Source: a virus (Duplodnaviria; Heunggongvirae; Uroviricota; Caudoviricetes). Taken from it: 16,525 nucleotides of DNA. How positions within the stretch are numbered: the stretch's first letter is position 1; every line of letters starts with the position of its first letter. The notes below the pieces were generated by a model. That model searched no databases and had not been told where the DNA came from. It was given only the letters and a program-made list of their open reading frames with translations. Location: the IMG/VR virus record IMGVR_UViG_2706794662_000018. One strand, written 5' to 3'. Positions 1 to 16,525 of this stretch are shown piece after piece. The translations under genes and the position numbers were made by a program.

Positions 1-795
1 TCATAGAATAGGAGAGTAAATTTCCACCTCAGGGTAATAAGCTCTAAGGTAATTTATAAGACCTTCATAAGCATTAAGAAGAGATATTTTATGTGAAATC
101 AAATCTTGTTCTATTATCAGTGCTTTATCGGATGGTAGCTCATCATAATTGAAATGACAAAGAAGATTATGATTCGCACCACCAAACACCTGAATGTTTC
201 TATTATCGGAAATCGGCAAATGTCCAGATATGATAAAATCAATATTTTTATACGAATCAATAAAACTTTGGAAATGACCGTGGAGTAATTTATCATTTAA
301 AGGATAGCTCGCTGGAAAATCCCTTAAAATACTATCAAACTGATCTCCAAAAATAAGAAGATTGATGTGAAAAGAATTAGGTAAAGTTTCAACTAATGAA
401 CGTACCCTCGCAAACGGTGTAAAGTGGAAGTAAGCGTTTAAAAAGTCCACATCTGACTGTCTTTTTTTATCTGAAAATAATGTATTATCGGTTGCACCCT
501 GTATATAAGCCTCATGTTCACTTTTGATTTGATGCAATTTTTCTACTGTATAAGTGAATGGATCTCTATCAACAAGAATATGATCATTTGCACAAAGCAG
601 GATAAGATTTTCATAAGAATTGTCATTTGCTAACAGGTCATCGCCCCTTGGTCCTTTTGGGCTTTTGGCTATTACATGAGCCATTTGTCCGATGTGAACC
701 TGCTCTTTAAAAAGAGAAGTTCGGCAAATATTACATTGCCCAGCGGATAGTCCATACAATTTTTTTATTGCTGCTGTAGTAATTGCATCACTCAT
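1..795 (-). CDS. HNH endonuclease-domain protein with uncharacterised C-terminal domain
   Basis: Complete ORF: ATG at 795..793, TGA at 3..1. AAGGA Shine-Dalgarno 8-9 nt upstream. N-terminal ~90 aa carries CNIC ... AHVIAKSPKGPRG ... NLILLCANDH, the canonical HNH zinc-finger nuclease signature. The C-terminal ~170 aa matches nothing I recognise. Confidence 0.75.
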   Translation of the reverse strand: MSDAITTAAIKKLYGLSAGQCNICRTSLFKEQVHIGQMAHVIAKSPKGPRGDDLLANDNSYENLILLCANDHILVDRDPFTYTVEKLHQIKSEHEAYIQGATDNTLFSDKKRQSDVDFLNAYFHFTPFARVRSLVETLPNSFHINLLIFGDQFDSILRDFPASYPLNDKLLHGHFQSFIDSYKNIDFIISGHLPISDNRNIQVFGGANHNLLCHFNYDELPSDKALIIEQDLISHKISLLNAYEGLINYLRAYYPEVEIYSPIL

Positions 796-855
796 AAATC
801 AAATCCTTAGATTGCTATTTTATTAACTCAAAACACATATTAAAGGAAAAATCTT

Positions 856-1149
856 TCAGCTTCCACCAACCATAATCAATAGCACTTGCAAAAGTTGTCC
901 TAATGGAACTTGGATCACAATAATTCCAAAAGCATCAAGTACTGGTACTATGATCCAGTTATAGAGAATGATAAGGGTTAGTACAAAACCGAGGGCATTA
1001 CGCCAGTGGAATGTTACCTTTTCAATCTCTTCTTTATTCGTTTCAATCTGCCCTTCTACATTCGTTTTCTTTACTTCCTGTTCAATAGTTTTCTTCTTAA
1101 TGAAAAAATCCAATCCTGACTTCAGAAACTCAATCAATATACTAATCAT
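856..1149 (-). CDS. small membrane protein with two predicted C-terminal transmembrane helices (function unknown; holin-like or exclusion factor possible)
   Basis: ATG at 1149..1147 overlaps the upstream stop in an ATGA arrangement. Charged K/E-rich N-terminal 45 aa, then two hydrophobic stretches (ALGFVLTLIILYNWIIVPVL and IIVIQVPLGQLLQVLLIMVGG). No homologue recognised. Confidence 0.45.
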   Translation of the reverse strand: MISILIEFLKSGLDFFIKKKTIEQEVKKTNVEGQIETNKEEIEKVTFHWRNALGFVLTLIILYNWIIVPVLDAFGIIVIQVPLGQLLQVLLIMVGGS

Positions 1150-1457
1150 TCAATAATCCCCACGGCATATACCCAAAAATGTTTACCCTTCACAAAGAGC
1201 TTTTTACTCTCAATTAGAAATACAGGCATCTTTTCACCCTGTAATTCCCATTCAAGTACTTCACCAACTTTGAAATCTTTCTTCTTCTCATAAATAACGT
1301 TCATATAGCTATCAATCTGATAATTACTTTTCTTAACGACCTTTTGAAATTTCTTATCAAGAAAACATTTGTTAATTGGCATACTATTACCATCTGGTGT
1401 CATGCCATTTAGCTTAATCTTGCTTATTAAATCACCATAATGTTGCTCAAAATTCAT
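1146..1457 (-). CDS. hypothetical protein
   Basis: 103-aa ORF with ATG start. Start and stop overlap both neighbours by 4 nt, suggesting translational coupling within an operon. No recognisable motif. Confidence 0.4.
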   Translation of the reverse strand: MNFEQHYGDLISKIKLNGMTPDGNSMPINKCFLDKKFQKVVKKSNYQIDSYMNVIYEKKKDFKVGEVLEWELQGEKMPVFLIESKKLFVKGKHFWVYAVGIIE

Positions 1458-2032
1458 TGTCTACTTATCCTGAATGTTCCCTGAATACCGCTCATAATTA
1501 CCCTTACACCATCATTGGCTTCCTTATAGAAGTCATAGATAAGGCGACGTTGTTTCTTCTCACGTAAGCCAATTACACGTTTGGTTTTCTTCTTGGTATC
1601 TTTCTTTGCGGTATCAATTAATCGTTCTTTACCATTCTTACCCTTCACTACCTTATATCGTTCACTTAAAAGATTCTTTTTCAGTCCTGAAATGTTGCCC
1701 TGCTTAGTTAATCTTGTAGATGAAGTAGGTATAAACTTATCAATTGCCTTTGGCTGTACCAGTACTTGATAAAGGTACTTAGCCTGAATATCTTTAACCA
1801 TGATGGTCGATGTAACTGAATTTCTCCCAACCTTTCTATAGAAGAAAAGGATGGAACGTTGAGTAAAGCCCACTGCCCCACGGTCAACGCTATTATTCAA
1901 ATCACCCTGCATTCTTTGGGATAGTAGCTTGGAACGTTTAATTATTTCATTCTGGAATTGATTATTTAATCTAACTCCCTGCGTTTGTATATAGTTCCTT
2001 ATACTACCAATCCCATTTATTCCACTTGCCAT
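1454..2032 (-). CDS. hypothetical basic (Lys/Arg-rich) protein
   Basis: 192-aa ORF, ATG at 2032..2030 with GAGGT Shine-Dalgarno 6 nt upstream. Strongly basic C-terminal half (KGKNGKERLIDTAKKDTKKKTKRVIGLREKKQRR). No family recognised. Confidence 0.45.
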   Translation of the reverse strand: MASGINGIGSIRNYIQTQGVRLNNQFQNEIIKRSKLLSQRMQGDLNNSVDRGAVGFTQRSILFFYRKVGRNSVTSTIMVKDIQAKYLYQVLVQPKAIDKFIPTSSTRLTKQGNISGLKKNLLSERYKVVKGKNGKERLIDTAKKDTKKKTKRVIGLREKKQRRLIYDFYKEANDGVRVIMSGIQGTFRISRQ

Positions 2033-2041
2033 ATATTTACC

Positions 2042-2476
2042 TCAATTCAAGTACTCCAATAGTTCCTGTACTATTCCGAGTAGTCTTTTTTTATCCTTTG
2101 CATTTGGTGATCTAATCTTACTCATCATTGCCAGATTCAAACATTCCGGTTTAAGCATCTGATGAAGGATCAGTATTGCCTCTACAATCATTACCTCTCG
2201 CATAGTTGCGAAGCACCATAGAATCGTTTTTGAGTACTGTTCACCATTTTCAATTTTGTTTTTAACGACATTGGAACTACTGAGGTACTCACGCCAGCCA
2301 TTTTCCTTTGAAGTGGGCTTTAGCTTTCTCGCATCCTTAACCCGCTGATAGATTTGCTTAGCACCGACATAATTAGAACCATCCTCAAACTGAAAGATAT
2401 AAACGAAACCAGCATATTCACCGGATAACATTTCCTCCTCGCTCCAATCATCCGAGTATTTCCATTCACTCATCAT
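2042..2476 (-). CDS. GIY-YIG-like nuclease domain protein (tentative)
   Basis: 144-aa ORF starting ATGATG, AGGA Shine-Dalgarno upstream. Segment GFVYIFQFEDGSNYVGAKQ ... R fits the GIY-(10-11 aa)-YIG pattern followed by a conserved Arg, as in I-TevI and T4 Seg proteins. Motif-level only. Confidence 0.45.
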   Translation of the reverse strand: MMSEWKYSDDWSEEEMLSGEYAGFVYIFQFEDGSNYVGAKQIYQRVKDARKLKPTSKENGWREYLSSSNVVKNKIENGEQYSKTILWCFATMREVMIVEAILILHQMLKPECLNLAMMSKIRSPNAKDKKRLLGIVQELLEYLN

Positions 2477-2483
2477 AAATATT

Positions 2484-2502
2484 CCTATAAATTCATTATA
2501 GG
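2484..2502. promoter_or_regulatory. inverted repeat cctataa-N5-ttatagg in the 36-bp divergent intergenic region (candidate operator or promoter element)
   Basis: Perfect 7-bp arms with a 5-bp spacer, lying between the divergent start codons at 2476 (minus) and 2513 (plus). It overlaps a TATAAA-like sequence. Confidence 0.3.
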
Positions 2503-2512
2503 TATTTAGTAA

Positions 2513-2962
2513 ATGAGCGATTTAAAAACACGATTAAAAGAATATGAAGGTACTAAAGAGTATCAGGCAAATTTGAAGTACTTCAGAAATGGGAAATTCT
2601 ATCCATATGCTGATAGTTTAGGATGTAGTACTATTGGATATGGTCACTTAATTCAGGCGGGAGAAGATTTTAGTACTGGCATTACTGAAAGCGAAGCAGA
2701 CAAGTTACTATCTCGCGATTTAGCCAAAACAATTATGCAGGTACAGACATTAGGGTTAAATCTTCCCGATGACTGGAATGATTTTATTATTATCATGACC
2801 TTCCAGTTAGGTATTGGCGGGGTGAAGAAATTCCGTAAGATGTTAGCAGCCCTGAAAGCACATGATTACCTTGAAGCAATTAAACAGGCTAAGTGTTCTC
2901 TATGGTACAGGCAGACACCAAACCGTGTGAATTCCATGATTGCAGTACTTAAAAACAAATAA
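2513..2962 (+). CDS. endolysin, T4-type lysozyme (glycoside hydrolase family 24)
   Basis: 149-aa ORF, ATG start, TAA stop. Matches remembered T4/P22 lysozyme motifs: catalytic-region YEG ... YADSLG ... STIGYGH, then ITESEADKLLSRDL and CSLWYRQTPNRVNSMIAVL (T4: ITKDEAEKLFNQDV, SRWYNQTPNRAKRVITTF). No N-terminal hydrophobic SAR segment, so a holin is presumably required. Confidence 0.9.
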   Translation: MSDLKTRLKEYEGTKEYQANLKYFRNGKFYPYADSLGCSTIGYGHLIQAGEDFSTGITESEADKLLSRDLAKTIMQVQTLGLNLPDDWNDFIIIMTFQLGIGGVKKFRKMLAALKAHDYLEAIKQAKCSLWYRQTPNRVNSMIAVLKNK

Positions 2963-2968
2963 AGAAAA

Positions 2969-3002
2969 GGCATAGTACGAATGACATACTATGCCTTTTT
3001 TT
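2969..3002. terminator. bidirectional rho-independent terminator
   Basis: Perfect 9-bp stem ggcatagta (2969..2977) / tactatgcc (2987..2995) with a 9-nt loop. An A-run lies upstream and a T7 run at 2996..3002. It sits between the convergent endolysin (+) and the 3001..4029 gene (-). Confidence 0.65.
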
Positions 3003-4029
3003 ATGGTCGTTGTTTCTGCTGAAGAATTGCAATAATCCTTTCAATCTTAACATCAAGTTCATGGATTTGTGTTTCCAGTTTACTTAGTGTATCTCTCATC
3101 TTATCCTGATCATCCTCAATACGGGAAATACTACTTTCCAGTACAGCAATGGTAGTTTCAAGAGTAGCAACGCGAGTTAATAGATCATTCGTATCCTTTG
3201 TATTATCTCTAAAGATAGTATAAAGGAATACGCATCCAGAAATAACAANNNNNNNNNNNNNNNNNNNNNNNNNNNNNNNNNNNNNNNNNNNNNNNNNNNN
3301 NNNNNNNNNNNNNNNNNNNNNNNNNNNNNNNNNNNNNNNNNNNNNNNNNNNNNNNNNNNNNNNNNNNNNNNNNNNNNNNNNNNNNNNNNNNNNNNNNNNN
3401 NNNNNNNNNNNNNNNNNNNNNNNNNNNNNNNNNNNNNNNNNNNNNNNNNNNNNNNNNNNNNNNNNNNNNNNNNNNNNNNNNNNNNNNNNNNNNNNNNNNN
3501 NNNNNNNNNNNNNNNNNNNNNNNNNNNNNNNTGATATGTTCCCCGGACATTGTGACCAGCAGAACCAGGGATCAGCTACTGGAGACGTTACCGTAATGGC
3601 AGTACTGAGATCGGTAGCCGCAGGTGCTGTCAAAAATCCCCTGATACGTGGCATTGTTGCCGCTGATGCAGCAGACCAGATTAAAGTACCTTCTTCACTG
3701 AACACATCAAGAAAACCAGATGTGGGGGTAGCCGTGTGACTACTTGTCATGAACCTGCCCATGCCAGGCTGGAACATATAGGCACCAGGGAAACACCATG
3801 CCCCGTCTTTCTGTATCTGGAACCAGTACTGTGTTGTGTTCCTGTTAGCTACTACTGATGGCATAACGAAACCGAGCGATCCACCATTACCGAAGGCACA
3901 GGTAAAGCCTGTGTAGTATCCCGTATCAGTTAGATTTCCCATGGCCTTTACTGCACCCGTCATTATCGACTTGTTAGTACTATCTATAGTCAGTGCACCC
4001 GCTGAATTATATACCTCGAAACCTGCCAT
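3001..4029 (-). CDS. hypothetical tail-associated protein, paralogous at its N-terminus to the upstream 98-aa protein; continuity across the N run unverifiable
   Basis: ATG at 4029..4027, one nt after the upstream TAA. The N-terminal 166 aa are aromatic/Gly-rich. After the 283-nt N run the frame continues into a short hydrophobic segment (VISGCVFLYTIF) plus heptad-like coiled coil ending at 3001. The gap could hide a stop and a new start. Confidence 0.4.
   Translation of the reverse strand: MAGFEVYNSAGALTIDSTNKSIMTGAVKAMGNLTDTGYYTGFTCAFGNGGSLGFVMPSVVANRNTTQYWFQIQKDGAWCFPGAYMFQPGMGRFMTSSHTATPTSGFLDVFSEEGTLIWSAASAATMPRIRGFLTAPAATDLSTAITVTSPVADPWFCWSQCPGNISXXXXXXXXXXXXXXXXXXXXXXXXXXXXXXXXXXXXXXXXXXXXXXXXXXXXXXXXXXXXXXXXXXXXXXXXXXXXXXXXXXXXXXXXXXXXXXXVISGCVFLYTIFRDNTKDTNDLLTRVATLETTIAVLESSISRIEDDQDKMRDTLSKLETQIHELDVKIERIIAILQQKQRP
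3249..3531. other. run of N (masked or unsequenced), 283 nt
   Basis: Literal n characters in the sequence. Confidence 1.
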
Positions 4030-4030
4030 C

Positions 4031-4327
4031 TTACGCCGTCCACTTATATACGTTAAAAGTGTAGTTACCAGCTAACGGTGCATATGTTGGCAAATAAACC
4101 GCAGTAAATGACCCATTATTACAAAAGGCTGACCACTCATTAAAGGTATCACTGGCGGGGGCATAGTGTACAAACCAGCCTGTAGTTTTCATATTTGGTA
4201 CTGATACAGTATAGGTCTGTGCAGAAGTAGCCTTGACAGTATAAGTACCCATAAAACGTATGTTATAATCAGTCAGATCTACTACTAATACACCCGCTGC
4301 ATTCCAACATTGTAATCCCTGTGCCAT
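4031..4327 (-). CDS. hypothetical small tail-associated protein (candidate receptor-binding or fibre accessory protein)
   Basis: 98-aa ORF, ATG at 4327..4325 with AGGAG Shine-Dalgarno about 9 nt upstream. N-terminus MAQGLQCWNAAGVLVVDLTD parallels MAGFEVYNSAGALTIDSTN of the next gene. Aromatic-rich. Confidence 0.45.
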   Translation of the reverse strand: MAQGLQCWNAAGVLVVDLTDYNIRFMGTYTVKATSAQTYTVSVPNMKTTGWFVHYAPASDTFNEWSAFCNNGSFTAVYLPTYAPLAGNYTFNVYKWTA

Positions 4328-4484
4328 AGCTCTTACTCCTGTAAATCCTTTTCTTCATTCCAATTGTTTCTTTTCCGCTAATACTGAATGGGTTAGTACT
4401 GGTACTATTGAAAGTACGTTCATTAGATTTCATTTATGTATCCTTTTGAAATGAGGTTACAGTTAATAATCCCTGAATTATTTA

Positions 4485-8210
<3,726 letters not shown>

Positions 8211-8211
<1 letters not shown>

Positions 8212-9398
8212 TACTTGTATTTCCAGTTCTGATTTTGATTAACTTGACCTAACAGACTAAAGTACTCATCATTTCTATAGTAAGATTGATATACTGAGTT
8301 GGCGGCAATTAATGCAGGTTGTCTGTCTAATTTCTTATAGACAGAATTCACATATATAGTCATTTCGTTTTGCTTCTGATTTGGATCAGTTACTGCCTGT
8401 ACATAGTCAATAAACCCCGTAAACATGAGCATTGAATCAATTACAGTACTATCATATGGATTGAGAATTACTAACTTGATATTCATCTGTGCATCTTTCA
8501 AGAAACCACCAAGGGCAAGAGCACGAACCGAGGCGTTTACATTGCTAATTTTAAAATTGATAGCATCATTAGACATGCCCTTTTGTTCAGAATATGAAGG
8601 TAATGAACCACTGATAATGTCGGGGAAACTTATGTACTTATAACCATCCAGATCTATATCAATTAGTGAATCCGTCCAGTGAAAACCATTAGTACCTTTT
8701 GGTAGTACATCAAAACAAGTAACATTAACGCCTAAGCTCATAATTTCNNNNNNNNNNNNNNNNNNNNNNNNNNNNNNNNNNNNNNNNNNNNNNNNNNNNN
8801 NNNNNNNNNNNNNNNNNNNNNNNNNNNNNNNNNNNNNNNNNNNNNNNNNNNNNNNNNNNNNNNNNNNNNNNNNNNNNNNNNNNNNNNNNNNNNNNNNNNN
8901 NNNNNNNNNNNNNNNNNNNNNNNNNNNNNNNNNNNNNNNNNNNNNNNNNNNNNNNNNNNNNNNNNNNNNNNNNNNNNNNNNNNNNNNNNNNNNNNNNNNN
9001 NNNNAAGTACTGGTACGTTCTACGATTCGATATAGCTTATTGTGATTGGAAAACTGTACCCACTCACCCACAGCTAATGTGTTAGTACTGATAGGTACAA
9101 CCATATTACCCGGTTTAGTGAGAGCAGTAGCGGTTACTGCACCAGTCTGTTTACCGTAATATGTACCTGCAAGCCCCAATGACATAGTGAAAGGTTTGCC
9201 CTGTGCATATTGAGCTAAAAAGCTATTCACTTCATTTAGTGATGCAGGATTAAAATTAAGGGTGAACTGAATTTGATAGTATTGAATTCCAGTACTTCTC
9301 ATGATACGTTGACCTGTCCATGTTTGATTAGAATAGATCGGTTCAGTACTTTTAATTTGAAAGTTCGTTACTTTTATTTGATTTGAAAAGGATGCCAT
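8211..9398 (-). CDS. minor tail protein(s), gpM-like N-terminal part and gpL-like C-terminal part; may be two genes separated inside the N run
   Basis: ATG at 9398..9396. The 131 aa before the gap loosely resemble lambda gpM; the 178 aa after it loosely resemble gpL. Position directly downstream of the tape measure gene is as in lambda. The 257-nt N run could hide a stop and restart. Confidence 0.45.
8748..9004. other. run of N (masked or unsequenced), 257 nt
   Basis: Literal n characters. Confidence 1.
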
Positions 9399-9498
9399 TT
9401 TGTTACCTCGAATATCTTCTTTCTTTATTTATTTAAAAACCTCGATTCGTATTTTTTTTAACAGGCTTGATTGGCAGGCTGCATCCGTCATCGTTGCT

Positions 9499-9972
9499 AT
9501 GTTGTTATTTGCAGGCCAAATAGGCTATAACGCATATGATAAATGGAAAGAAAGTTCAGATGATGTTTTTAAGATGCGTGTAATCTTATTGAGCGAAATC
9601 AACAATAACCTTTTAGCTCTTGCTACTGGTGGCGATGAGTCTCAGGTGTTAGGCACATATGAAATATGTATTCCTCTTCCAACTGAAGATACAGAAGCTA
9701 TTAAAAGAGTAGCAACTGCCGTTTCTTATTTGCATGATGATGTATATTATTCCCAATTAGAAAAATTAGCATCACTCCCAAAAAAAGAAGTAGATGCCAT
9801 CGTAAAGAGTTATTATTCATTATCGAGATTACGTACTCTTTCAACACAGCTTGCATACAATATTAAATACTCACCACCTAAAGTTAAATTATTGCGGGAA
9901 GAGTATTACAATCTCTATACCCTTTCATCTTCTCTTTCACAATATTTGTCTTATCACACGGAAAATCCCTAA
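9499..9972 (+). CDS. hypothetical protein encoded opposite to the tail operon (moron-like), start uncertain
   Basis: Plus-strand frame open from 9400 to TAA at 9970..9972. First ATG is at 9499; the only in-frame upstream start is TTG at 9400. The TTG start would add a hydrophobic helix (WQAASVIVAMLLFAGQIGY). No strong Shine-Dalgarno at either. It converges on the tape measure gene with a 10-bp gap and is visibly more AT-rich than its neighbours. Confidence 0.45.
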   Translation: MLLFAGQIGYNAYDKWKESSDDVFKMRVILLSEINNNLLALATGGDESQVLGTYEICIPLPTEDTEAIKRVATAVSYLHDDVYYSQLEKLASLPKKEVDAIVKSYYSLSRLRTLSTQLAYNIKYSPPKVKLLREEYYNLYTLSSSLSQYLSYHTENP

Positions 9973-9982
9973 CTGGGCTTTC

Positions 9983-12196
9983 TTATGTATTACGTTTTTG
10001 ACTACTTCTCACAGCTTGAGAAACACTATTGGCGTGTTTCTTAAGCATCTCATTAAATTTCTTGTCATCATCAGCTACATCACCCTGGATGATCAATGGT
10101 GCGTTAACGGTAATATCACCTGAAGTACTTCCACCTTCTTGTTTATCCAAGAATGCTGTTAATTTCTTATTCGCTTCAGGCTGCACCACTCTCTCGCCCT
10201 GCTTAAGTACAAATGATTTGTTGTCATAACTTGCTGGTAGTTCATCTACCCCGCCATGGAACTGACCAGCAGCAGCACCCTTTGCAGTACTAATAATCGA
10301 CATACCAAGTGAAAGTACTTGTGCATAGTTTGCCAATGAAGCTGGCCAAGGGGTAGCGAGTGCTTGGGCCAATGCTGACTGAATTGAAAGTACTGTCTGT
10401 GCAATGCTTATGCTCTTACTTAGGGTAAATGCAGCTTGTGCAGCCCCACTACTTTCCCCAAACGCATCAACCATGCCCTGTGATAGTGACTGTGCAGTAC
10501 TTGAGAAGATACTTAACTGATCCTGTGCATTCTGGTTACTGATTTGGATGGCCTGTGCATTGTACTTTGCCGTGATCTCAGCTTTACGTTTCTCATAGTC
10601 CTCATGGCCTTTCAGCAACAACTCATTCTGCTGAAGTTCAGCATTCATAGCATCAGCGTTATCTTTCAACTTCTGATCGGTATCGTTATAGGCTAATGGA
10701 TTACCACCATTGATACGCTGATTCTGTTGCTGTGCCAGATACCCCTTCTGATTGTCATTGAGTAGACCGGAACCAATAAGAGCATTGGTATCTTTCAGAC
10801 CCTGATTAGGATCTTGATAACCAACCATTGAATTCAGTAAATCAGTACGTTGTTTAGCACCATATGCAGTAGCGTTCTTTAGCATTTCATCAGGATTGAT
10901 ACCGAGTACTTGAGCACTATCGGTGATGGTTTTAAGAAGTGCCTTTTGTTGTCTGTCGAACTGCTGTAGACGTACCTGAAAACCATCTTCCCCAACTTGA
11001 GCAAGAGCAGCTTCCAGATTACGTTGAGCCTGTAGGCGTTTTGCATCTGCCGCCTTTTGTGCCGCTTCTGCCTGTTTACGTTGTTGTTCTAACTTCTTCG
11101 CTGCATCTTCAGCTTCTTTTGCCTGATCAACCCATCCGCCAGTAGGAGCGGTAGCAACCGCAACATCGGACTTTAGGTTGTTTGCCAGTTCTTCTAAACG
11201 TGCCTTAGCCTGAGCGAACTCATTACCCTTGTTGCCCTTATCATCCATGATGCCAGTATTGAGTGCTGCACCCTGGTAGTTTAATGCCCCTGCTGTACGT
11301 AATTTTTCCCAGATATCCAACATATCCTGTAGAGAACCCTTGGAAGTTTTAATACGTTCATTCAGATCTTCAAACAAACCTGCCTCGTGAGGTTTTTGAT
11401 TTGCAGCATCATAGACACTGTTCATGGCATTAACTAAAGGTGATAGGCCATCAGCAATAGTACCTTTAATGCTGGTAGTAAGTTTCCCAAGGTTTTTATC
11501 GAATTCAGCATATTTTTCAGCAGCATCATTAGTTACTTCAGCATTTTGTGACTGGATATAGGCTGTAGCTTGAGCCTCATTATTGAACTGCTGAAGAGTA
11601 CTAATCATGTGGCTTGAGTCACTGGCTAACGTTTCCATTACGTTAACTATTTCACTCTGTGATTTACCTGCATCACGCATGGCGTAAAAGGTGTGGATCA
11701 CAGCCTGCATACCACCATCAGCCTGTTTTAAGTACTTGTTATAGTCCTGTAGGTTGAGTCCATATTCTTTAAGATCATCGGATACACCACCGCCAGCACG
11801 AAAAGCATCACCGAGCTTATCCAAGGTATCCTTGTTGAAATCACCAAACTTATCAATCTCAAGACCGAGGCCACTAAACGCCGCTGATAGCTGTTGTAAC
11901 TGAACCACGGACAATCCGGTACTCTTACTGATCTGGTTCATTTCACGCACATATTCACGTGATGATTCTACTAATGCTGCCAGGCCACCAATACCAATAG
12001 CCGCAGCACCCGCGATCCCGGTCATAGCAGTACCGAACCCGCCAGCCATACCAGTTATTCGGCCTGTGAACTCTTCAACAATGCCACCAGCAGTACTACC
12101 AAATTCCTCTAATGATTCAGTACCAGACCTTAAAGCACGCTGTAAACCGGAAGAATCACCCGTAATATCTACACGTATTCTATTATTATTTGCCAT
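9983..12196 (-). CDS. tail tape measure protein
   Basis: 737-aa ORF, AGGAA Shine-Dalgarno about 9 nt upstream of the ATG. Gly-rich hydrophobic segment near the N-terminus (GMAGGFGTAMTGIAGAAAIGIGGLAAL), long A/Q/K/E-rich helical stretches, second hydrophobic region near the C-terminus. Sits immediately downstream of the G/G-T chaperone pair. Confidence 0.85.
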   Translation of the reverse strand: MANNNRIRVDITGDSSGLQRALRSGTESLEEFGSTAGGIVEEFTGRITGMAGGFGTAMTGIAGAAAIGIGGLAALVESSREYVREMNQISKSTGLSVVQLQQLSAAFSGLGLEIDKFGDFNKDTLDKLGDAFRAGGGVSDDLKEYGLNLQDYNKYLKQADGGMQAVIHTFYAMRDAGKSQSEIVNVMETLASDSSHMISTLQQFNNEAQATAYIQSQNAEVTNDAAEKYAEFDKNLGKLTTSIKGTIADGLSPLVNAMNSVYDAANQKPHEAGLFEDLNERIKTSKGSLQDMLDIWEKLRTAGALNYQGAALNTGIMDDKGNKGNEFAQAKARLEELANNLKSDVAVATAPTGGWVDQAKEAEDAAKKLEQQRKQAEAAQKAADAKRLQAQRNLEAALAQVGEDGFQVRLQQFDRQQKALLKTITDSAQVLGINPDEMLKNATAYGAKQRTDLLNSMVGYQDPNQGLKDTNALIGSGLLNDNQKGYLAQQQNQRINGGNPLAYNDTDQKLKDNADAMNAELQQNELLLKGHEDYEKRKAEITAKYNAQAIQISNQNAQDQLSIFSSTAQSLSQGMVDAFGESSGAAQAAFTLSKSISIAQTVLSIQSALAQALATPWPASLANYAQVLSLGMSIISTAKGAAAGQFHGGVDELPASYDNKSFVLKQGERVVQPEANKKLTAFLDKQEGGSTSGDITVNAPLIIQGDVADDDKKFNEMLKKHANSVSQAVRSSQKRNT

Positions 12197-12590
12197 TCTT
12201 TTTCTTTCCTAATACCTGAGATTTAATTAACTCCCCTATAGATTTAATATCATTGGATTGAGCCTCTTTAGTTTTTAATTTTCTTTCTTCAGCTTTCTCT
12301 GAAGTACTCTTAGTACTATCACTAAGCACATCAAGAAAATCAAAATCCTGTACCTTGATACTTTTCCTTGCTTCTGGTGTTAGGTTGCCATTACTGATAG
12401 TGGTGTAGTAACACTGGTACGCATGTTTCATCATTTCAATCTGCGTACCGGATGGTTCTATAAAAGTATCGTAGATCATAAGCATATTGAGTACATCAGG
12501 ATCTAAACTAAAGTATTCTTCAGGTGATAAGCCTCTTTTGTTAACCATCTTACAAAAGTACTTTAATTCGATATCACCTCTTACTTTTTT
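12186..12590 (-). CDS. tail assembly chaperone G-T frameshift extension (gpT-like part, made as a G-T fusion)
   Basis: The -1 frame relative to G is open from the slippery site through the ATG at 12548 to TAA at 12188..12186, with no stop in between. The stop overlaps the tape measure start by 11 nt. Confidence 0.55.
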   Translation of the reverse strand, partial: KKVRGDIELKYFCKMVNKRGLSPEEYFSLDPDVLNMLMIYDTFIEPSGTQIEMMKHAYQCYYTTISNGNLTPEARKSIKVQDFDFLDVLSDSTKSTSEKAEERKLKTKEAQSNDIKSIGELIKSQVLGKKKNGK

Positions 12591-12886
12591 TCTACTTCAT
12601 CTACAGGTTTCGCAGTATTGATTAAAGCAATAATTGCTGAGTAAATTTCATTCTGGATTACAAAATCAATAGAGTTAACATTAATTCGTCCATCAATATC
12701 TTCTTCTGCGAAGATAGGATCACCATTTTCATCTTTTACACATAGGATTAGAGTTTTAGCCACATCAGTGCATTTCTGGAAATCCTGACCATTTGGACGA
12801 TGAATAAAGATGATTTCACCCATTACTTCATGTGGTTTTAATTCTGGTTGTAGTTTTTTCTTCAATTCGTTTAAATTCATTTTCAT
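12581..12886 (-). CDS. tail assembly chaperone, gpG-like
   Basis: The ORF track start at 12892 is a TTG. GGAG lies at 12890..12887 and ATGs at 12886 and 12880, so the true start is probably one of those. Stop TAA at 12583..12581. Small acidic protein between the tail tube and tape measure genes. Ends in the slippery heptamer. Confidence 0.6.
   Translation of the reverse strand: MKMNLNELKKKLQPELKPHEVMGEIIFIHRPNGQDFQKCTDVAKTLILCVKDENGDPIFAEEDIDGRINVNSIDFVIQNEIYSAIIALINTAKPVDEVEKK
12584..12590 (-). other. programmed -1 ribosomal frameshift site, slippery heptamer A_AAA_AAG
   Basis: mRNA reads GTA GAA AAA AAG TAA. The heptamer A AAA AAG is in the zero frame of G immediately before its stop, identical to the E. 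coli dnaX slippery sequence. It lies at the position of the conserved G/G-T frameshift of tailed phages. Confidence 0.55.
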
Positions 12887-12892
12887 CTCCAA

Positions 12893-12921
12893 TAAAAAAG
12901 GGAAAGTTGAGCACCTTCCCT
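12893..12921 (-). terminator. intrinsic terminator or attenuator hairpin between the tail tube and chaperone genes
   Basis: On the minus-strand transcript a 6-bp stem (12921..12916 pairing with 12904..12899) with an 11-nt loop is followed directly by UUUUUAUU (12898..12893), which runs into the GGAG of the next gene. Confidence 0.4.
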
Positions 12922-12931
12922 TTATTTATTA

Positions 12932-13405
12932 TTATTCGCCCGATTCTGGTTTTGGAGTAATCAGACCTGAATCAATTGCTTCACCATCAACTGCAAGGGT
13001 GAAAGTCTTAGTTACTACTTCATCTTTATCACCACCGATAGTGGTACTTGAAACAAAGCAGGTATAAATTACAAAGAAACCTTCTTTTTTAGTTGCATCG
13101 GTAAAATAGCTTAGTTTTACCTGACAACGTTTCTGATCGTCTGCAAGTTGTTCTAAATTCTGATGTACTGCATTATCTGGTAAGTAGTTAACTGCAAGAG
13201 AAATGTCCGGGATTGACTTAGTACCCAATAGCTTACGATCATAAGCATTATTGAATGTTTTTACGCTAATTACAGTACTTTCAAAGCCTGAAGTACTGAA
13301 GGTGTTTACCTCTGGTACTTCTACAAAGTCAGTAGCAACTGTTTTACCAGCACTTGAACCTACTTCTACAGTAAGGTTAGCACCGGAAAAAATATCCATA
13401 GCCAT
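12932..13405 (-). CDS. major tail tube protein (lambda gpV-like fold, tentative)
   Basis: 157-aa ORF, ATG at 13405..13403 with AAGGA Shine-Dalgarno. Occupies the canonical position immediately upstream of the G/G-T chaperones and tape measure gene. Pattern-level resemblance to lambda gpV from memory. Clear paralogue of the N-terminal domain of the 883-aa protein. Confidence 0.6.
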   Translation of the reverse strand: MAMDIFSGANLTVEVGSSAGKTVATDFVEVPEVNTFSTSGFESTVISVKTFNNAYDRKLLGTKSIPDISLAVNYLPDNAVHQNLEQLADDQKRCQVKLSYFTDATKKEGFFVIYTCFVSSTTIGGDKDEVVTKTFTLAVDGEAIDSGLITPKPESGE

Positions 13406-13420
13406 AGTTTTATATCCTTA

Positions 13421-13455
13421 TAAGAAAATTTTATTGGAGTGAATCCGTTCACCCC
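13421..13455 (-). terminator. weak hairpin between the fibre gene and the tail tube gene (possible attenuator)
   Basis: On the minus transcript GGGGUGAA-CGGA-UUCACUCC (13455..13436) forms an 8-bp stem with one G-U pair, followed by AAUAAAAUUUUCUUA. The U tract is interrupted, so termination is doubtful. Confidence 0.25.
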
Positions 13456-13463
13456 GTTTATAT

Positions 13464-16115
13464 TTATTTATTATTTAATAGCTGTTGTACTAAATCTTTT
13501 AGCTGATTAATTTCTTCTTGTTGGGCTTGAATAGCTCCCATCAAGTCCATCACTATTGGATTTAAATCAACACGTGGATGATCACGAGTGACAATCTCCC
13601 CTTCTATTTCAACTGTTTCTTCATCATGCTTAATGTACTGCGGAGCAGTCAACTCAGCATCTTCGGCGATAACACCAAACCTAACCCTTTCTTGTTCATC
13701 ATCCTTGTAGATAAACGTTACTAAATCTTGTGACATTATCCGATCTAATGCTTCAACTGGATTTGCTGGAGTTATGTCTCTTTTAAACTCACGACCTGAT
13801 GTACCTTGAGCTTGCATTACTAACCATCCAAACCATGTTGTACCGTTCCCGCCTCGTACTCTTAAAGTACCACCACCGTCTATCTGAAGCTGAGAGCGAT
13901 TTGCCCCTGGGTGTCTTTGCATGTGCAATAAAGGGGAATATTTTTCACTATAGTTAATACCTGAGTCACCTGGCCCTGCATACATACCGTTAAAGGTGAT
14001 GGTATTGGCATCTGTCGGTCCCGAAACAGCGGTATTAGTCATCCATCCTGATTGAACATCAGTTAGGATCGTTCCAGTCGGCCCTTTTAGCCCCCATAGT
14101 TTATCCTCTGCACCATTTTCAGAAATAAAAAGGGTGAGATCAGCCTGTCCAGTCTGTCCCATCGTTTTACCAACCCGAAAACCACCAGATATTTCAGTTG
14201 ATGTACCAATGTTGCATATCGAACGAATACGCCCTCCAGTTACATAACTACCAATTGCCGTAGAGGAAGGGGAAGAAGCAATAACATCCCATTGAGGACT
14301 AACTGAAGTACGACTACTCAGCAAGTTTTCAACCCAGCGTTTGGTAGTCGCGTCAGAATCAGAGACAGGATCTCCTGCTAAAGAAGTTGCACCCGTAGGA
14401 CGAATCGCAGGCCATAACTCAGCCTGAGTCTTAACACCAGTACCGCCCTGCGGAATTGCTAATGCTTTCCAGCCAGTGAAAGCACCCGCAATATATGTAG
14501 CTGAACCCCATTGCCCTCCATCATAAACCACTAATGCAGCGGAAGAATCAGCGGATTTAATAGTTGTTAAATTACTACCTTGATTAAAGCGATCCACCTG
14601 AAAGTTTAGGCGAGCACTCAAAGCATCTGTAGCCCCTGTCCCCCCCTGACCTATACCTAAAGCAATCCATCCAGTACCAGTACTTGCACCCCATGCCCCG
14701 TTATCCTGAATTCGGATACGGTTAGTCAGGTCATTACTCATCAGATCGGTGTACGTAGCACCCTGAGTCAAACGGTTCACCTGTAGGTTAGTACGTGCTG
14801 TAGAGAGACTGGATAGATCAGAAAGGTTACTCGCTTTCTTCATGGAAGCGGAATCAAGGGAAGTAATACTGTCAGCTAAAGCCGTTACCTCTGCATCTAC
14901 TTCATCCATTGAGTAAACAGCAAGGTTAATACGTGCTTCTTCCACGTCCCCCAGATCACTTAGATTACCTGCTATCGTAAGCTGGGCATCATCTGTAACC
15001 TTCCCTAAGCCAACATCAGTACTGGTAAGTACTACATCCTCACTGAGTACATGACCGTTGACCATACGTGTATCAGGTACTGAACCTGTATCTTCACTAC
15101 TCAGTACTACATTTTCACTAAGTACATGACCGTTCACTGTACGCGTGTCAGGTACTGAACCTGTATCTTCACTACTCAGTACTATATCTTCACTGAGTAC
15201 ATGACCATTAACTGTCCGTGTATCTGGTACAGAGCCGGTATCAGTACTGGTAAGTACTACATCCTCACTTAGAGGCTTACCATTCACAGTACGTGTATCA
15301 GGTACTGAACCTGTATCTTCACTGTTCAGTACTAAATTGGCCGTGAGTGCATGGCCGTTGATGGTACGTGTAAGGGGTACGTATCGCCCGTCCATCTGTG
15401 TAGCGGTATATATGCGTGTCCAGGCGGTTGTAGCGTTCTTTGCATAGATACTTAGAGTACCCGTCTTTGTCATCGCAAGAGAACTTACAGTAGTGCCATC
15501 TACAAGCCCTACTCCCATCAGATCCGCCCCGGCAGGATTGCCTGCTTGAGATGATGGTACTTTGATGAAGCTGTTACCCGTAGGTACTGATGGTGAGTAC
15601 TGAGGTACATCCGTAGTGTTCGAACCTAAACCGTAGTCCCCCTGATAGATTGGCGATAGTGCGTTAATGGTCATTGCACGTGCGATCACATCATGTGGGG
15701 CAAAACTGTATGCCTTGGTTACTACTGAACCTTTATCACCGTCCAACTTATAAGAGGTGATATAACCATTCACCATCGCATAAGTAATGGTATTTTCATC
15801 CTTATTCATCTGGTACTGAATGATGATCTGGAAAAGCTGCTGAGACTTAGCGGCATTATCCAAGAATTGATGTGTAGGATCATCAGGTAGGTAGTTAACT
15901 ACAATATCAAATGGTGCTACTGATTTATCAGATAGTAGTACTGTCCTGTAATCACTATCATACGTTTCAAAATTATTTGCTTCTGAATTTATTGTTAAGG
16001 TTGGAAAAGTATTAATCTGTTTAATTACTACATTGCCTGCTCCCTGTGGTGTTCTGTTACCAATATCAGCATTATACTGTACTGATAATTCTCTTCCTGA
16101 GAAAATATCACTCAT
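13464..16115 (-). CDS. tail fibre protein with N-terminal tail-tube-like domain, five 25-aa tandem repeats and C-terminal intramolecular chaperone (peptidase S74-like) domain
   Basis: 883-aa ORF. Residues 1-145 align with the 157-aa tube protein (MSDIFSG/MAMDIFSG, NTF, VNYLPDD/VNYLPDN, GDKGSVVTK/GDKDEVVTK). Middle has fibre motifs (NLSDL ... ARTNL). The C-terminal 111 aa (SGREFKRDITPANPVEALDRI ... LVTFIYKDD ... RFGVIAEDAELTAP) match the autoproteolytic chaperone domain of endosialidase and T5 L-shaped fibres, with Ser and Lys 5 residues apart. Confidence 0.8.
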   Translation of the reverse strand: MSDIFSGRELSVQYNADIGNRTPQGAGNVVIKQINTFPTLTINSEANNFETYDSDYRTVLLSDKSVAPFDIVVNYLPDDPTHQFLDNAAKSQQLFQIIIQYQMNKDENTITYAMVNGYITSYKLDGDKGSVVTKAYSFAPHDVIARAMTINALSPIYQGDYGLGSNTTDVPQYSPSVPTGNSFIKVPSSQAGNPAGADLMGVGLVDGTTVSSLAMTKTGTLSIYAKNATTAWTRIYTATQMDGRYVPLTRTINGHALTANLVLNSEDTGSVPDTRTVNGKPLSEDVVLTSTDTGSVPDTRTVNGHVLSEDIVLSSEDTGSVPDTRTVNGHVLSENVVLSSEDTGSVPDTRMVNGHVLSEDVVLTSTDVGLGKVTDDAQLTIAGNLSDLGDVEEARINLAVYSMDEVDAEVTALADSITSLDSASMKKASNLSDLSSLSTARTNLQVNRLTQGATYTDLMSNDLTNRIRIQDNGAWGASTGTGWIALGIGQGGTGATDALSARLNFQVDRFNQGSNLTTIKSADSSAALVVYDGGQWGSATYIAGAFTGWKALAIPQGGTGVKTQAELWPAIRPTGATSLAGDPVSDSDATTKRWVENLLSSRTSVSPQWDVIASSPSSTAIGSYVTGGRIRSICNIGTSTEISGGFRVGKTMGQTGQADLTLFISENGAEDKLWGLKGPTGTILTDVQSGWMTNTAVSGPTDANTITFNGMYAGPGDSGINYSEKYSPLLHMQRHPGANRSQLQIDGGGTLRVRGGNGTTWFGWLVMQAQGTSGREFKRDITPANPVEALDRIMSQDLVTFIYKDDEQERVRFGVIAEDAELTAPQYIKHDEETVEIEGEIVTRDHPRVDLNPIVMDLMGAIQAQQEEINQLKDLVQQLLNNK
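14997..15371 (-). repeat. five tandem 75-bp (25-aa) repeats inside the fibre gene
   Basis: Protein repeat TRTVNGHVLSEDVVLSSEDTGSVPD occurs 5 times with a few substitutions each. The DNA units are near-identical (for example gtatcaggtactgaacctgtatcttcactactcagtactacat recurs at about 15070, 15146 and 15296). Confidence 0.85.
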
Positions 16116-16132
16116 CCTTTATATCCTTTTAG

Positions 16133-16525
16133 TTATCTTGTCTTTTCCGTAACTTGAATATTTATCGTAAAGGATAGGGAAACCGAGCCAGTTATAGGAT
16201 CTGTGACAATATCGGATTGTTCATAAGAACACGAAAGCATTATTAAACCTGCATCACTGAATGCTGAAGTTTTCTCTTTATCAAAAGTACTAATAATCTG
16301 ATCATAAGTGATGGATGGGGCTGTATTACCTGATTCTGGTTTAGGGGAAATCAGATACTGAATTGCAAAGTTACCTGCCCGGCGTTCATTGCTGAAACTT
16401 AAACTCGTTAATGAGTAATCAAAAGCAATTTGTTCAAATACATCAACATCACGTGATACTGTCAGATTCTTAGTAGCATTGATAAGCTGCTTCATCGTAT
16501 TCCGTACTTTTTGTACTAACATCAT
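16133..16525 (-). CDS. tail terminator protein candidate (lambda gpU-like by size, position and weak pattern)
   Basis: 130-aa ORF with ATGATG at the window edge (16525..16520), so it is probably complete. Upstream of the fibre and tube genes, and the same size as lambda gpU (131 aa). Pattern-level resemblance only (RDVDVFEQIAFDYSL vs gpU RPAVFDEADFPAVAVYL, from memory). Confidence 0.4.
   Translation of the reverse strand: MMLVQKVRNTMKQLINATKNLTVSRDVDVFEQIAFDYSLTSLSFSNERRAGNFAIQYLISPKPESGNTAPSITYDQIISTFDKEKTSAFSDAGLIMLSCSYEQSDIVTDPITGSVSLSFTINIQVTEKTR

Follow-up and report, generated by a model that had tools for sequence, protein, structure and literature searches.

One short palindrome is held at unusually high density throughout a temperate phage of Enterobacteriaceae. 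The DNA analysed, a stretch of 16,525 bases (the window) from IMG/VR virus record IMGVR_UViG_2706794662_000018, is part of a ~32-kb lambda-like temperate siphovirus prophage in which GTAC, most often flanked as AGTACT, is strongly enriched. Phage genomics usually expects palindromes to be lost under restriction, and here one is kept about tenfold too frequent. The enrichment is a property of double-stranded DNA, is carried by long-resident genes and not by newcomers, and recurs with the same flanks in unrelated phages of the same host family. Our tentative reading is that (R)GTAC(Y) is a strand-symmetric self word, selected for its density and read by a symmetric DNA-recognising factor.

A preliminary description of the window, made from its letters, had reported over-representation of AGTACT, and exact counting makes it stronger than first claimed. 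The hexamer occurs 58 times against 5.57±2.34 in 200 dinucleotide-preserving shuffles (shuffle maximum 12), and the local counts first given are exact, with 6 copies in 4485-5400, 5 in 10201-10920 and 4 in 2513-2962. Three N-masked stretches (3249-3531, 7015-7304 and 8748-9004) hide 3 more AGTACT and 10 more GTAC, as near-identical public copies reveal, for totals of 61 and 184. Base composition predicts 3.9 AGTACT, an order 3 Markov model 31.5 and an order 4 model 55.2. The last figure is no refutation of the enrichment: as the order 4 model matches the hexamer count, AGTACT is explained by its pentamers and the signal is located in words of four to five letters. GTAC is found 174 times in the window against 47.6 expected, AGTAC 100 times and GTACT 96 times, with A before GTAC in 57% of sites and T after it in 55-56%. 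AGTACT is a GTAC core with two independent flank preferences, and while the hexamer is enriched as proposed, the real unit is GTAC, of which AGTACT is the commonest flanked form. Sites are dispersed over the window with Poisson-like spacing (coefficient of variation about 1), by which helical phasing, clustering and even spacing are rejected. A tandem-repeat artefact is likewise rejected, just 7 of the 58 AGTACT lying inside 75-bp repeats.

The excess does not derive from coding. In an unmasked 22-kb copy of the locus (L008), synonymous codons were shuffled gene by gene, with protein and codon usage kept. AGTACT is observed 77 times against 19.4±3.9 (shuffle maximum 31) and GTAC 244 times against 134±8, so that the excess stands under both checks first proposed, a Markov expectation (58 against 31.5 at order 3) and a codon-aware one. 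All three reading frames are enriched, GTAC about twofold (92/52.7, 114/62.0 and 36/17.1, observed/shuffle) and AGTACT about fourfold (40/10.2, 13/3.8 and 24/5.5) in each. The preliminary description was right to see a DNA-level bias and not one codon pair, and its examples at 5846 (xAG TAC T, Glu/Lys/Gln-Tyr) and 5953 (xxA GTA CTx, Val-Leu) are correct; both coding orientations are enriched, as are the three frames, and codon choice depends on context. Valine is spelled GTA in 87% of cases ahead of C versus 45% elsewhere, tyrosine TAC in 59% following G versus 28% elsewhere, and NGY codons take a final T 97% of the time ahead of AC versus 75% elsewhere. Ser-Thr pairs are spelled AGT-AC in 54 of 67 instances, and dipeptide content itself is shifted, with 67 Ser-Thr against 41.8 expected and 24 Ser-Ala against 39.8. 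The context-dependent codon choice and the Ser-Thr excess are active creation of GTAC sites. Codon usage or a codon pair as the cause is rejected by the synonymous shuffles and the context dependence.

The word is symmetric. AGTACT is its own reverse complement and its flanks are mirror images, with position -1 favouring A/C and disfavouring G and position +6 favouring T/G and disfavouring C; there is no strand polarity. A longer hidden motif is rejected, since no information extends past positions -1 and +6 and CCAGTACTGG-type extensions are rare. One-substitution neighbours of GTAC lie near expectation (observed/expected 0.92-1.23), which indicates that GTAC has been gained and is not the residue of depleted neighbours. 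Self-complementary structure at the RNA level was considered and rejected; native RNA is only 1.3 kcal/mol per 150 nucleotides more stable than its synonymous shuffles, and the effect is independent of orientation.

The signal was first described as belonging to the tail genes, a restriction that does not hold: terminase, portal, capsid, lysis and early genes are enriched as well, and the terminase, portal, capsid and upstream genes carry 8-15 GTAC/kb. At the border of the prophage the density falls abruptly: host DNA has about 1.7/kb, a value also seen inside insertion sequence (IS) elements. The genes of the window and their site counts are as follows.

1..16525, no strand: the dispersed GTAC/AGTACT field, with 58 AGTACT and 174 GTAC unmasked.
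1..795, minus strand: accessory HNH-like gene, in the Shigella lineage only; 0 AGTACT, 1 GTAC.
856..2032, minus strand: three core small genes (97-aa holin-like, 103 aa and 192-aa basic); 8-10 GTAC/kb clade-wide.
2042..2476, minus strand: core stand-alone GIY-YIG nuclease domain gene (SegE_GIY-YIG, E 2e-16); 2 AGTACT, 4 GTAC.
2513..2962, plus strand: lysozyme gene; 4 AGTACT, 7 GTAC (15.6/kb).
3001..4029, minus strand: DUF8377 (218 aa) and DUF2730 (90 aa) genes, joined into a false 342-aa open reading frame by the N mask.
4485..7814, minus strand: central tail-tip gene (J-like, fn3/Phage_Tail_Tip); 12 AGTACT, 49 GTAC (16/kb).
9400..9972, plus strand: opposite-strand moron, in 2 of 15 lineages; 0 AGTACT, 1 GTAC.
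9983..12196, minus strand: tape measure gene; 9 AGTACT, 18 GTAC.
13464..16115, minus strand: 883-aa fibre-like protein with a Peptidase_S74 domain; 10 AGTACT, 39 GTAC.

The lysozyme gene, on the opposite strand, is as enriched as the others, from which it follows that the enrichment is independent of orientation. Gene families were compared across 15 lineages over the right-hand 10.7 kb. Core families (in at least 10 lineages) carry 11.3 GTAC/kb, and accessory families (in at most 3) carry 3.9/kb, about the composition expectation, at a lower G+C fraction (0.34). The observation that likely acquired genes lack the signal is correct and general. The HNH gene and the moron, both accessory (1-2 of 15 lineages), have GTAC densities of 1.3/kb and 1.9/kb respectively, where core density would give 9.0 and 6.5 sites (Poisson p about 0.001 and 0.01). 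The enrichment is time-dependent, setting long-resident genes apart from newcomers. A host origin, suggested at first, is rejected because host DNA is itself depleted: in 83 kb of pooled host sequence GTAC is observed 210 times against 325 expected (0.65x) and AGTACT 4 times against 19.3 (0.2x), and GCGC is the most over-represented palindromic tetramer (566/357). Per kilobase, AGTACT stands at ~3.6 in the phage versus ~0.05 in the host, and GCGC at 0 versus ~6.8.

Relatives of the prophage were located via the portal, helicase and methyltransferase genes and include a Buttiauxella metagenome-assembled genome, Enterobacter, Phytobacter and many uncultivated viral genomes, all at ~38-39% G+C; matches to the methyltransferase-like protein reach Citrobacter, Kluyvera, Salmonella and Klebsiella. 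GTAC is enriched 2.2-3.6x in all members of this clade and AGTACT usually 4-11x. Between Shigella sonnei and Enterobacter/Phytobacter orthologs (61% nucleotide identity), 29-31% of GTAC sites are shared, where all tetramers average 19-20%. With ~70% of sites turned over and the density kept, a force must still be acting, and each lineage maintains its density independently; decay alone, we infer, would demand an ancestor of about 40 GTAC/kb. Where a relative lacks a site, the aligned words are mixed, with both transitions and transversions and no dominant precursor. In one lineage (L049) GTAC is enriched 2.8x, yet AGTACT occurs 4 times versus about 16 predicted from flank frequencies, which again identifies GTAC as the unit and shows that the hexamer can be counter-selected separately.

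The preliminary description called enrichment of a palindrome unusual for a phage, and this is borne out by the at least ten other palindromic restriction sites that the same phage purges. Not one GCGC occurs in any member of the clade, where 146 kb of pooled sequence should hold about 200. CTAG, of which 26 kb should hold 60-90 copies, is likewise missing from the Shigella and Buttiauxella sublineages and from some further ones; others have it. CTGCAG, GGATCC, GAGCTC, GTCGAC and CCTAGG are at zero clade-wide, AGGCCT occurs once, and GGTACC and CGTACG are at about 0 throughout the lineages. Of the palindromes, GTAC alone is enriched in these genomes. GCGC is absent, too, from every element that carries the ~965-aa helicase-primase (Yersinia islands and an Aeromonas prophage); the change to host DNA, which has 5-20 GCGC/kb, is abrupt. 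As a separate observation on words in these loci, the pooled clade has 10 copies of the E. coli Chi sequence GCTGGTGG, every one pointing along the genes, and 0 of its complement, with ~0.1 expected per 26 kb.

The signature is convergent in unrelated phages and linked to host group. A scan of IMG/VR for three AGTACT at short spacing returned other GTAC-rich viruses, two of the loci being Klebsiella jumbo phage RaK2; stretches of RaK2 and GAP32, giant phages of Klebsiella and Cronobacter, were then taken irrespective of AGTACT. In GAP32 (40.7 kb) the observed/expected counts are 270/131 for GTAC, 115/14 for AGTACT and 0/37 for GCGC, with GGTACC and CGTACG both at 0, and in RaK2 (50 kb) they are 318/148, 114/17 and 0/33, with GGTACC retained (8 versus 3.8 expected). 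Across the two, AGTACT is enriched 6.7-8.3x and GTAC about 2.1x. The GAP32 excess survives the codon-aware test in all frames (109 AGTACT against 27±4.7), and its flank frequencies for A/C/G/T (.61/.09/.13/.18) closely match those of the prophage clade (.57/.09/.19/.15). PA5oct, a jumbo relative that infects Pseudomonas, lacks the signature (GTAC 106/151, GCGC 47/36). That unrelated jumbo phages infecting this host family have the same word, flanks and GCGC ban argues for a specific reader or process. Among 86 further viral loci, the observed/expected ratios of GTAC and GCGC are negatively correlated (rho -0.37, p 5e-4).

The helicase-primase module extends the comparison to small Yersinia islands and an Aeromonas prophage, of which only the Y. 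enterocolitica island is AGTACT-rich; it shares just the replication module with the prophage clade, yet carries the signature. The islands are ~13 kb in size (L034, about 6.5-19.5 kb; L036, about 9-22 kb), with genes for a small open reading frame and helicase-primase, an integrase or recombinase, a CI-like repressor and a resolvase, and look like satellites. A primase recognition word was considered and rejected, identity to the clade being higher in the primase domain of the GTAC-free Aeromonas element (0.64-0.69) than in the domain from the GTAC-rich Yersinia island (0.37-0.63). The helicase-primase has no match among the defence-system models of PADLOC. Other phages of these hosts differ. 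T4-like Phi1 has AGTACT at 0/13, GTAC at 84/148 and both GGTACC and CGTACG at 0, KP27-like loci have 0-4 AGTACT versus about 6 expected, and GATC is about 1.6x enriched in both Phi1 and the KP27-like phages. Such AGTACT-free phages in the same hosts suggest that AGTACT-directed restriction matters there, and they make the enrichment more striking. Klebsiella phage KLB5 (PP202993.1), an unrelated siphovirus at 38.8% G+C, is the opposite case, with GCGC at 187/56 (3.3x), GTAC at 42/140, AGTACT at 0/13 and GATC at 0/140. Four other uncultivated viruses (IMG/VR contigs L115, L094, L170 and L127) have GTAC enriched 3.4-4x, with similarity detected neither to the clade nor to the compared GAP32 stretch; one of them, a 278-kb contig, also lacks ACGT, CATG, GGCC and nearly all ATAT.

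Our preferred reading, which we hold tentatively and at well below an even chance, starts from selection for site density, which would keep GTAC ~3x and AGTACT ~10x enriched in every long-resident prophage gene. The reader would most probably be a factor that recognises DNA symmetrically, as a dimer, and acts where phages meet their Enterobacteriaceae hosts. Together, the GTAC word and the GCGC ban make phage DNA sharply distinct from host DNA, and the word may serve to discriminate phage DNA from host DNA, or to protect it, during lytic growth. Two phage groups that are unrelated but infect one host family have the same flanks, which points to a common reader, either host-encoded or on a shared mobile gene. 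Several points weigh against this reading. An enzyme-driven mutation bias in lytic growth may be at work in place of selection, and the self/non-self use of the word is conjecture. There is no long-gap avoidance, clustering or helical phasing, and only the mean density is visibly selected. No gene common to both phage groups tracks the signature, the GIY-YIG, 192-aa and 103-aa proteins not being common to the clade and the RaK2-like phages, and protein searches gave no candidate reader of the word.

A methyltransferase gene elsewhere in the genome, which the preliminary description had suggested looking for, has a putative representative ~500 bp beyond the left end of the window. This 241-aa methyltransferase-like gene is the last of the prophage, beside mipA (L016 11312-12034). 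Its product matches phrog_3820 'DNA methyltransferase' (E 3e-103) and shows motif I (ELCAGIG) ahead of motif IV (NPPF), as in the gamma class, with no Pfam or NCBIfam match. Its predicted fold (pLDDT, the predicted local distance difference test, 85) is that of a generic class I S-adenosylmethionine (SAM) methyltransferase, and its best sequence and fold matches, both weak, are to M.TaqI (TM-score 0.54). The gene is core in the clade and, at 14.9 GTAC/kb, the densest of the tabulated gene families. A copy in GAP32 is 48.6% identical, and it is the only gene found common to the clade and the jumbo phages. Homologs of 45-55% identity are scattered as an inserted gene in T4-like and RaK2-like phages of Enterobacteriaceae and Aeromonas.

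It is conceivable, if doubtful, that this NPPF protein methylates (A)GTAC(T), so that the site is tolerated and dense methylation is itself selected. The phrog_3820 match, the two motifs and the weak M.TaqI resemblance are consistent with such a role, as are the core status of the gene, its GTAC density and its presence in GAP32, and the T4-like phages that infect these hosts, with 0 AGTACT, make AGTACT-directed restriction a probable real threat there. Against it, the fold is generic and the specificity putative. Methylation of the kind made by M.KpnI, N6-methyladenine, blocks KpnI. Had the A of GTAC been modified, the continued purge of GGTACC and CGTACG would be unexpected. T4-like carriers of the homologs are GTAC-poor and mostly AGTACT-free, just 2 alignment positions separate GTAC-rich from GTAC-poor carriers, and the GTAC-rich Yersinia island has no copy of the gene. 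Protection also accounts for tolerance of the site and not for its tenfold excess. The evidence linking the gene to GTAC is weak, and we regard the gene as a lead, not an explanation.

A further, unlikely reading is a two-word code by which unrelated Enterobacteriaceae phages would mark their own DNA through the absence of GCGC together with dense (A)GTAC(T). A GCGC-directed nuclease could then shred host or competitor DNA, a symmetric factor would protect, replicate or package only (A)GTAC(T)-dense DNA, and the satellite-like island would have evolved the same code. Quite unlikely, in our estimate, is a mutation or repair bias without benefit, in which a phage activity of the lytic phase, similar to very-short-patch repair or gene conversion, turns near-cognate words into GTAC. 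Frame independence, Poisson spacing, turnover and the lag in acquired genes all fit such a bias, as do the sharing of the signature with a co-resident island and its absence from host DNA. However, no candidate enzyme is known, missing sites align to mixed words with no dominant precursor, the neighbours of GTAC are not depleted, and amino-acid content has shifted too; moreover, host enzymes do most of the copying and repair of a prophage, and yet host DNA is itself poor in GTAC.

Three further readings are largely excluded. A passive by-product of low G+C, a preference for A/T-ending codons and the purge of other palindromes is highly unlikely. It draws on the order 4 expectation (55.2 versus 58 observed), on GTA, ACT and AGT being favoured codons, and on the genome's ban of GCGC, CTAG, CTGCAG, GGATCC, GAGCTC, GTCGAC, CCTAGG and others, and the covariation of GTAC with CTAG (positive) and GCGC (negative) in other viral loci hints at a dinucleotide component. 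But synonymous shuffling gives 19.4 AGTACT versus 77, codon choice is strongly context-dependent, accessory genes of still lower G+C (0.34) have GTAC at about expectation, and GTAC is low in other phages of low G+C that infect these hosts (KLB5 42/140, Phi1 84/148, DCP80 segment 97/93). Very little weight falls on GTAC as a relic, either a former host's signature or the double-deamination product of HhaI-type methylated GCGC, by a route from G-m5C-GC (m5C, 5-methylcytosine) through GTGC/GCAC to GTAC, and so from AGCGCT to AGTACT. This would suit the zero GCGC wherever GTAC is high, a host GCGC density (about 6.8/kb) of the same order as the phage GTAC density, the depletion of Ser-Ala with enrichment of Ser-Thr, and the methylated CpG reported in RaK2 DNA (PMC3622015). 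It leaves the A/T flank preference unexplained, though, and zero GCGC of ~200 expected implies lethal selection and not decay; Aeromonas and Y. pseudotuberculosis elements, furthermore, have 0 GCGC without a GTAC excess. Ongoing deamination is rejected, since ~70% of sites have turned over at constant density with no GCGC left as feed, and the intermediates GTGC/GCAC are not the main alternative states (observed/expected 1.08). Least probable of all, and barely credible, are sites that block or titrate cell-division control through the host nucleoid-occlusion protein SlmA. SlmA is reported to bind a 12-bp site, GTGAGTACTCAC, with a central AGTACT, and the restriction of the signature to phages of Enterobacteriaceae hosts would agree. 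Here the flank that SlmA needs is under-used, with G in position -1 at a frequency of 0.09 versus a background of 0.195, GAGTACTC occurs in 5 of 381 AGTACT sites and there is no extended motif; as SlmA sites they are rejected, matching the consensus no further than the central hexamer.

The prophage itself has an integrase, GpA-type terminase, Portal_2, protease-capsid, tail tube, tape measure, tip and lysis genes between host flanks. In Shigella sonnei it sits between yeaG and mipA, and its right end adjoins mipA, yeaE and gapA; at the left end in an Enterobacter relative a large serine recombinase adjoins yeaG/prkA. From the left, the order is recombinase, two small open reading frames, the ~965-aa primase-helicase and a few morons, then small and GpA-type large terminase, portal, protease-capsid fusion and the tail genes of the window. 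Lysis genes, the GIY-YIG domain protein, three small genes, a variable cargo slot and the methyltransferase-like gene follow on the right. IMG/VR contigs of 28-36 kb span helicase to methyltransferase-like gene. Hundreds of assemblies, the Shigella sonnei 53G chromosome among them, encode an identical tape-measure protein. S. sonnei copies have several IS insertions (in the terminase and, in some genomes, the J-like tail-tip gene) and left-end deletions, and are probably defective, the metagenomic and Enterobacter copies being intact. No close relative was found by megablast in phage or E. coli collections. The nearest deposited relative, the first 26 kb of Escherichia phage DCP80 (PQ671644.1), has 30-35% amino-acid identity and no GTAC excess; that record looks chimeric, its first ~26 kb being a siphovirus structural module (GATC 0/93) joined to T4-like sequence.

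Within the window, the mask at 3249-3531 covers a (TTGTTA)7 hexanucleotide repeat (L001 3249-3488), and the fibre-like gene contains four to five 75-bp tandem repeats, ~80% identical, at about 15015-15371, which hold 7 AGTACT. Repeat copy number differs between genomes, giving products of 808, 858 and 883 aa. The cargo slot lies between the holin-like and methyltransferase-like genes (window 1-795 and beyond; about 8.1-10.0 kb in L038-L058) and almost every lineage has its own low-GC gene there, in most cases on the reverse strand: the HNH gene here, and 441-, 305-, 283- or 228-aa proteins in others. The slot looks like a defence or accessory hotspot.

Literature searches found no report of GTAC or AGTACT over-representation in phages, nor of a GTAC methylome motif in these hosts, and the RaK2 paper describes two methyltransferases and restriction resistance with no mention of the word (PMC3622015). 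A reader, once found, might bring to light a novel way of telling self from non-self DNA, of protecting DNA or of taking over the host, and the word would offer a simple sequence marker by which these elements may be recognised and their gene acquisitions dated. In relation to known systems, the clade genomes show textbook avoidance of Type II restriction sites at GCGC, CTAG and at least eight hexamers. Unlike these avoided sites, AGTACT and GTAC, the ScaI and RsaI palindromes, are enriched 10x and 3x, and only sublineage L049 shows a secondary depletion of AGTACT. Solitary methyltransferase targets such as Dam GATC and CcrM GANTC are, like the clade word, palindromic, of 4-6 bp and A-containing, and a small gene resembling amino-methyltransferases is conserved in the element. 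Here, by contrast, methylation is putative and T4-like phages with the homolog lack the word; we know of no methyltransferase whose target is 10-fold enriched in its own genome. Chi, KOPS (FtsK orienting polar sequences) and DNA uptake sequences share with the clade word a high genome-wide density kept by turnover and a sharp contrast between self and foreign DNA. They are 8-12 nucleotides long, non-palindromic, usually strand-polar and cellular, with known readers, whereas the clade word is a non-polar palindrome of 4-6 bp in phages and, unlike an uptake sequence or host signature, is not enriched in the host chromosome. A further parallel is with the RaK2/GAP32-like jumbo myoviruses (Alcyoneusvirus and Mimasvirus), which have 0 GCGC, the flank preferences and frame independence in common with the clade. 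GAP32, though not RaK2, also lacks GGTACC and CGTACG as the clade does. These viruses are otherwise unlike it, being virulent and not temperate, of 346-359 kb versus ~32 kb, and unrelated in architecture.

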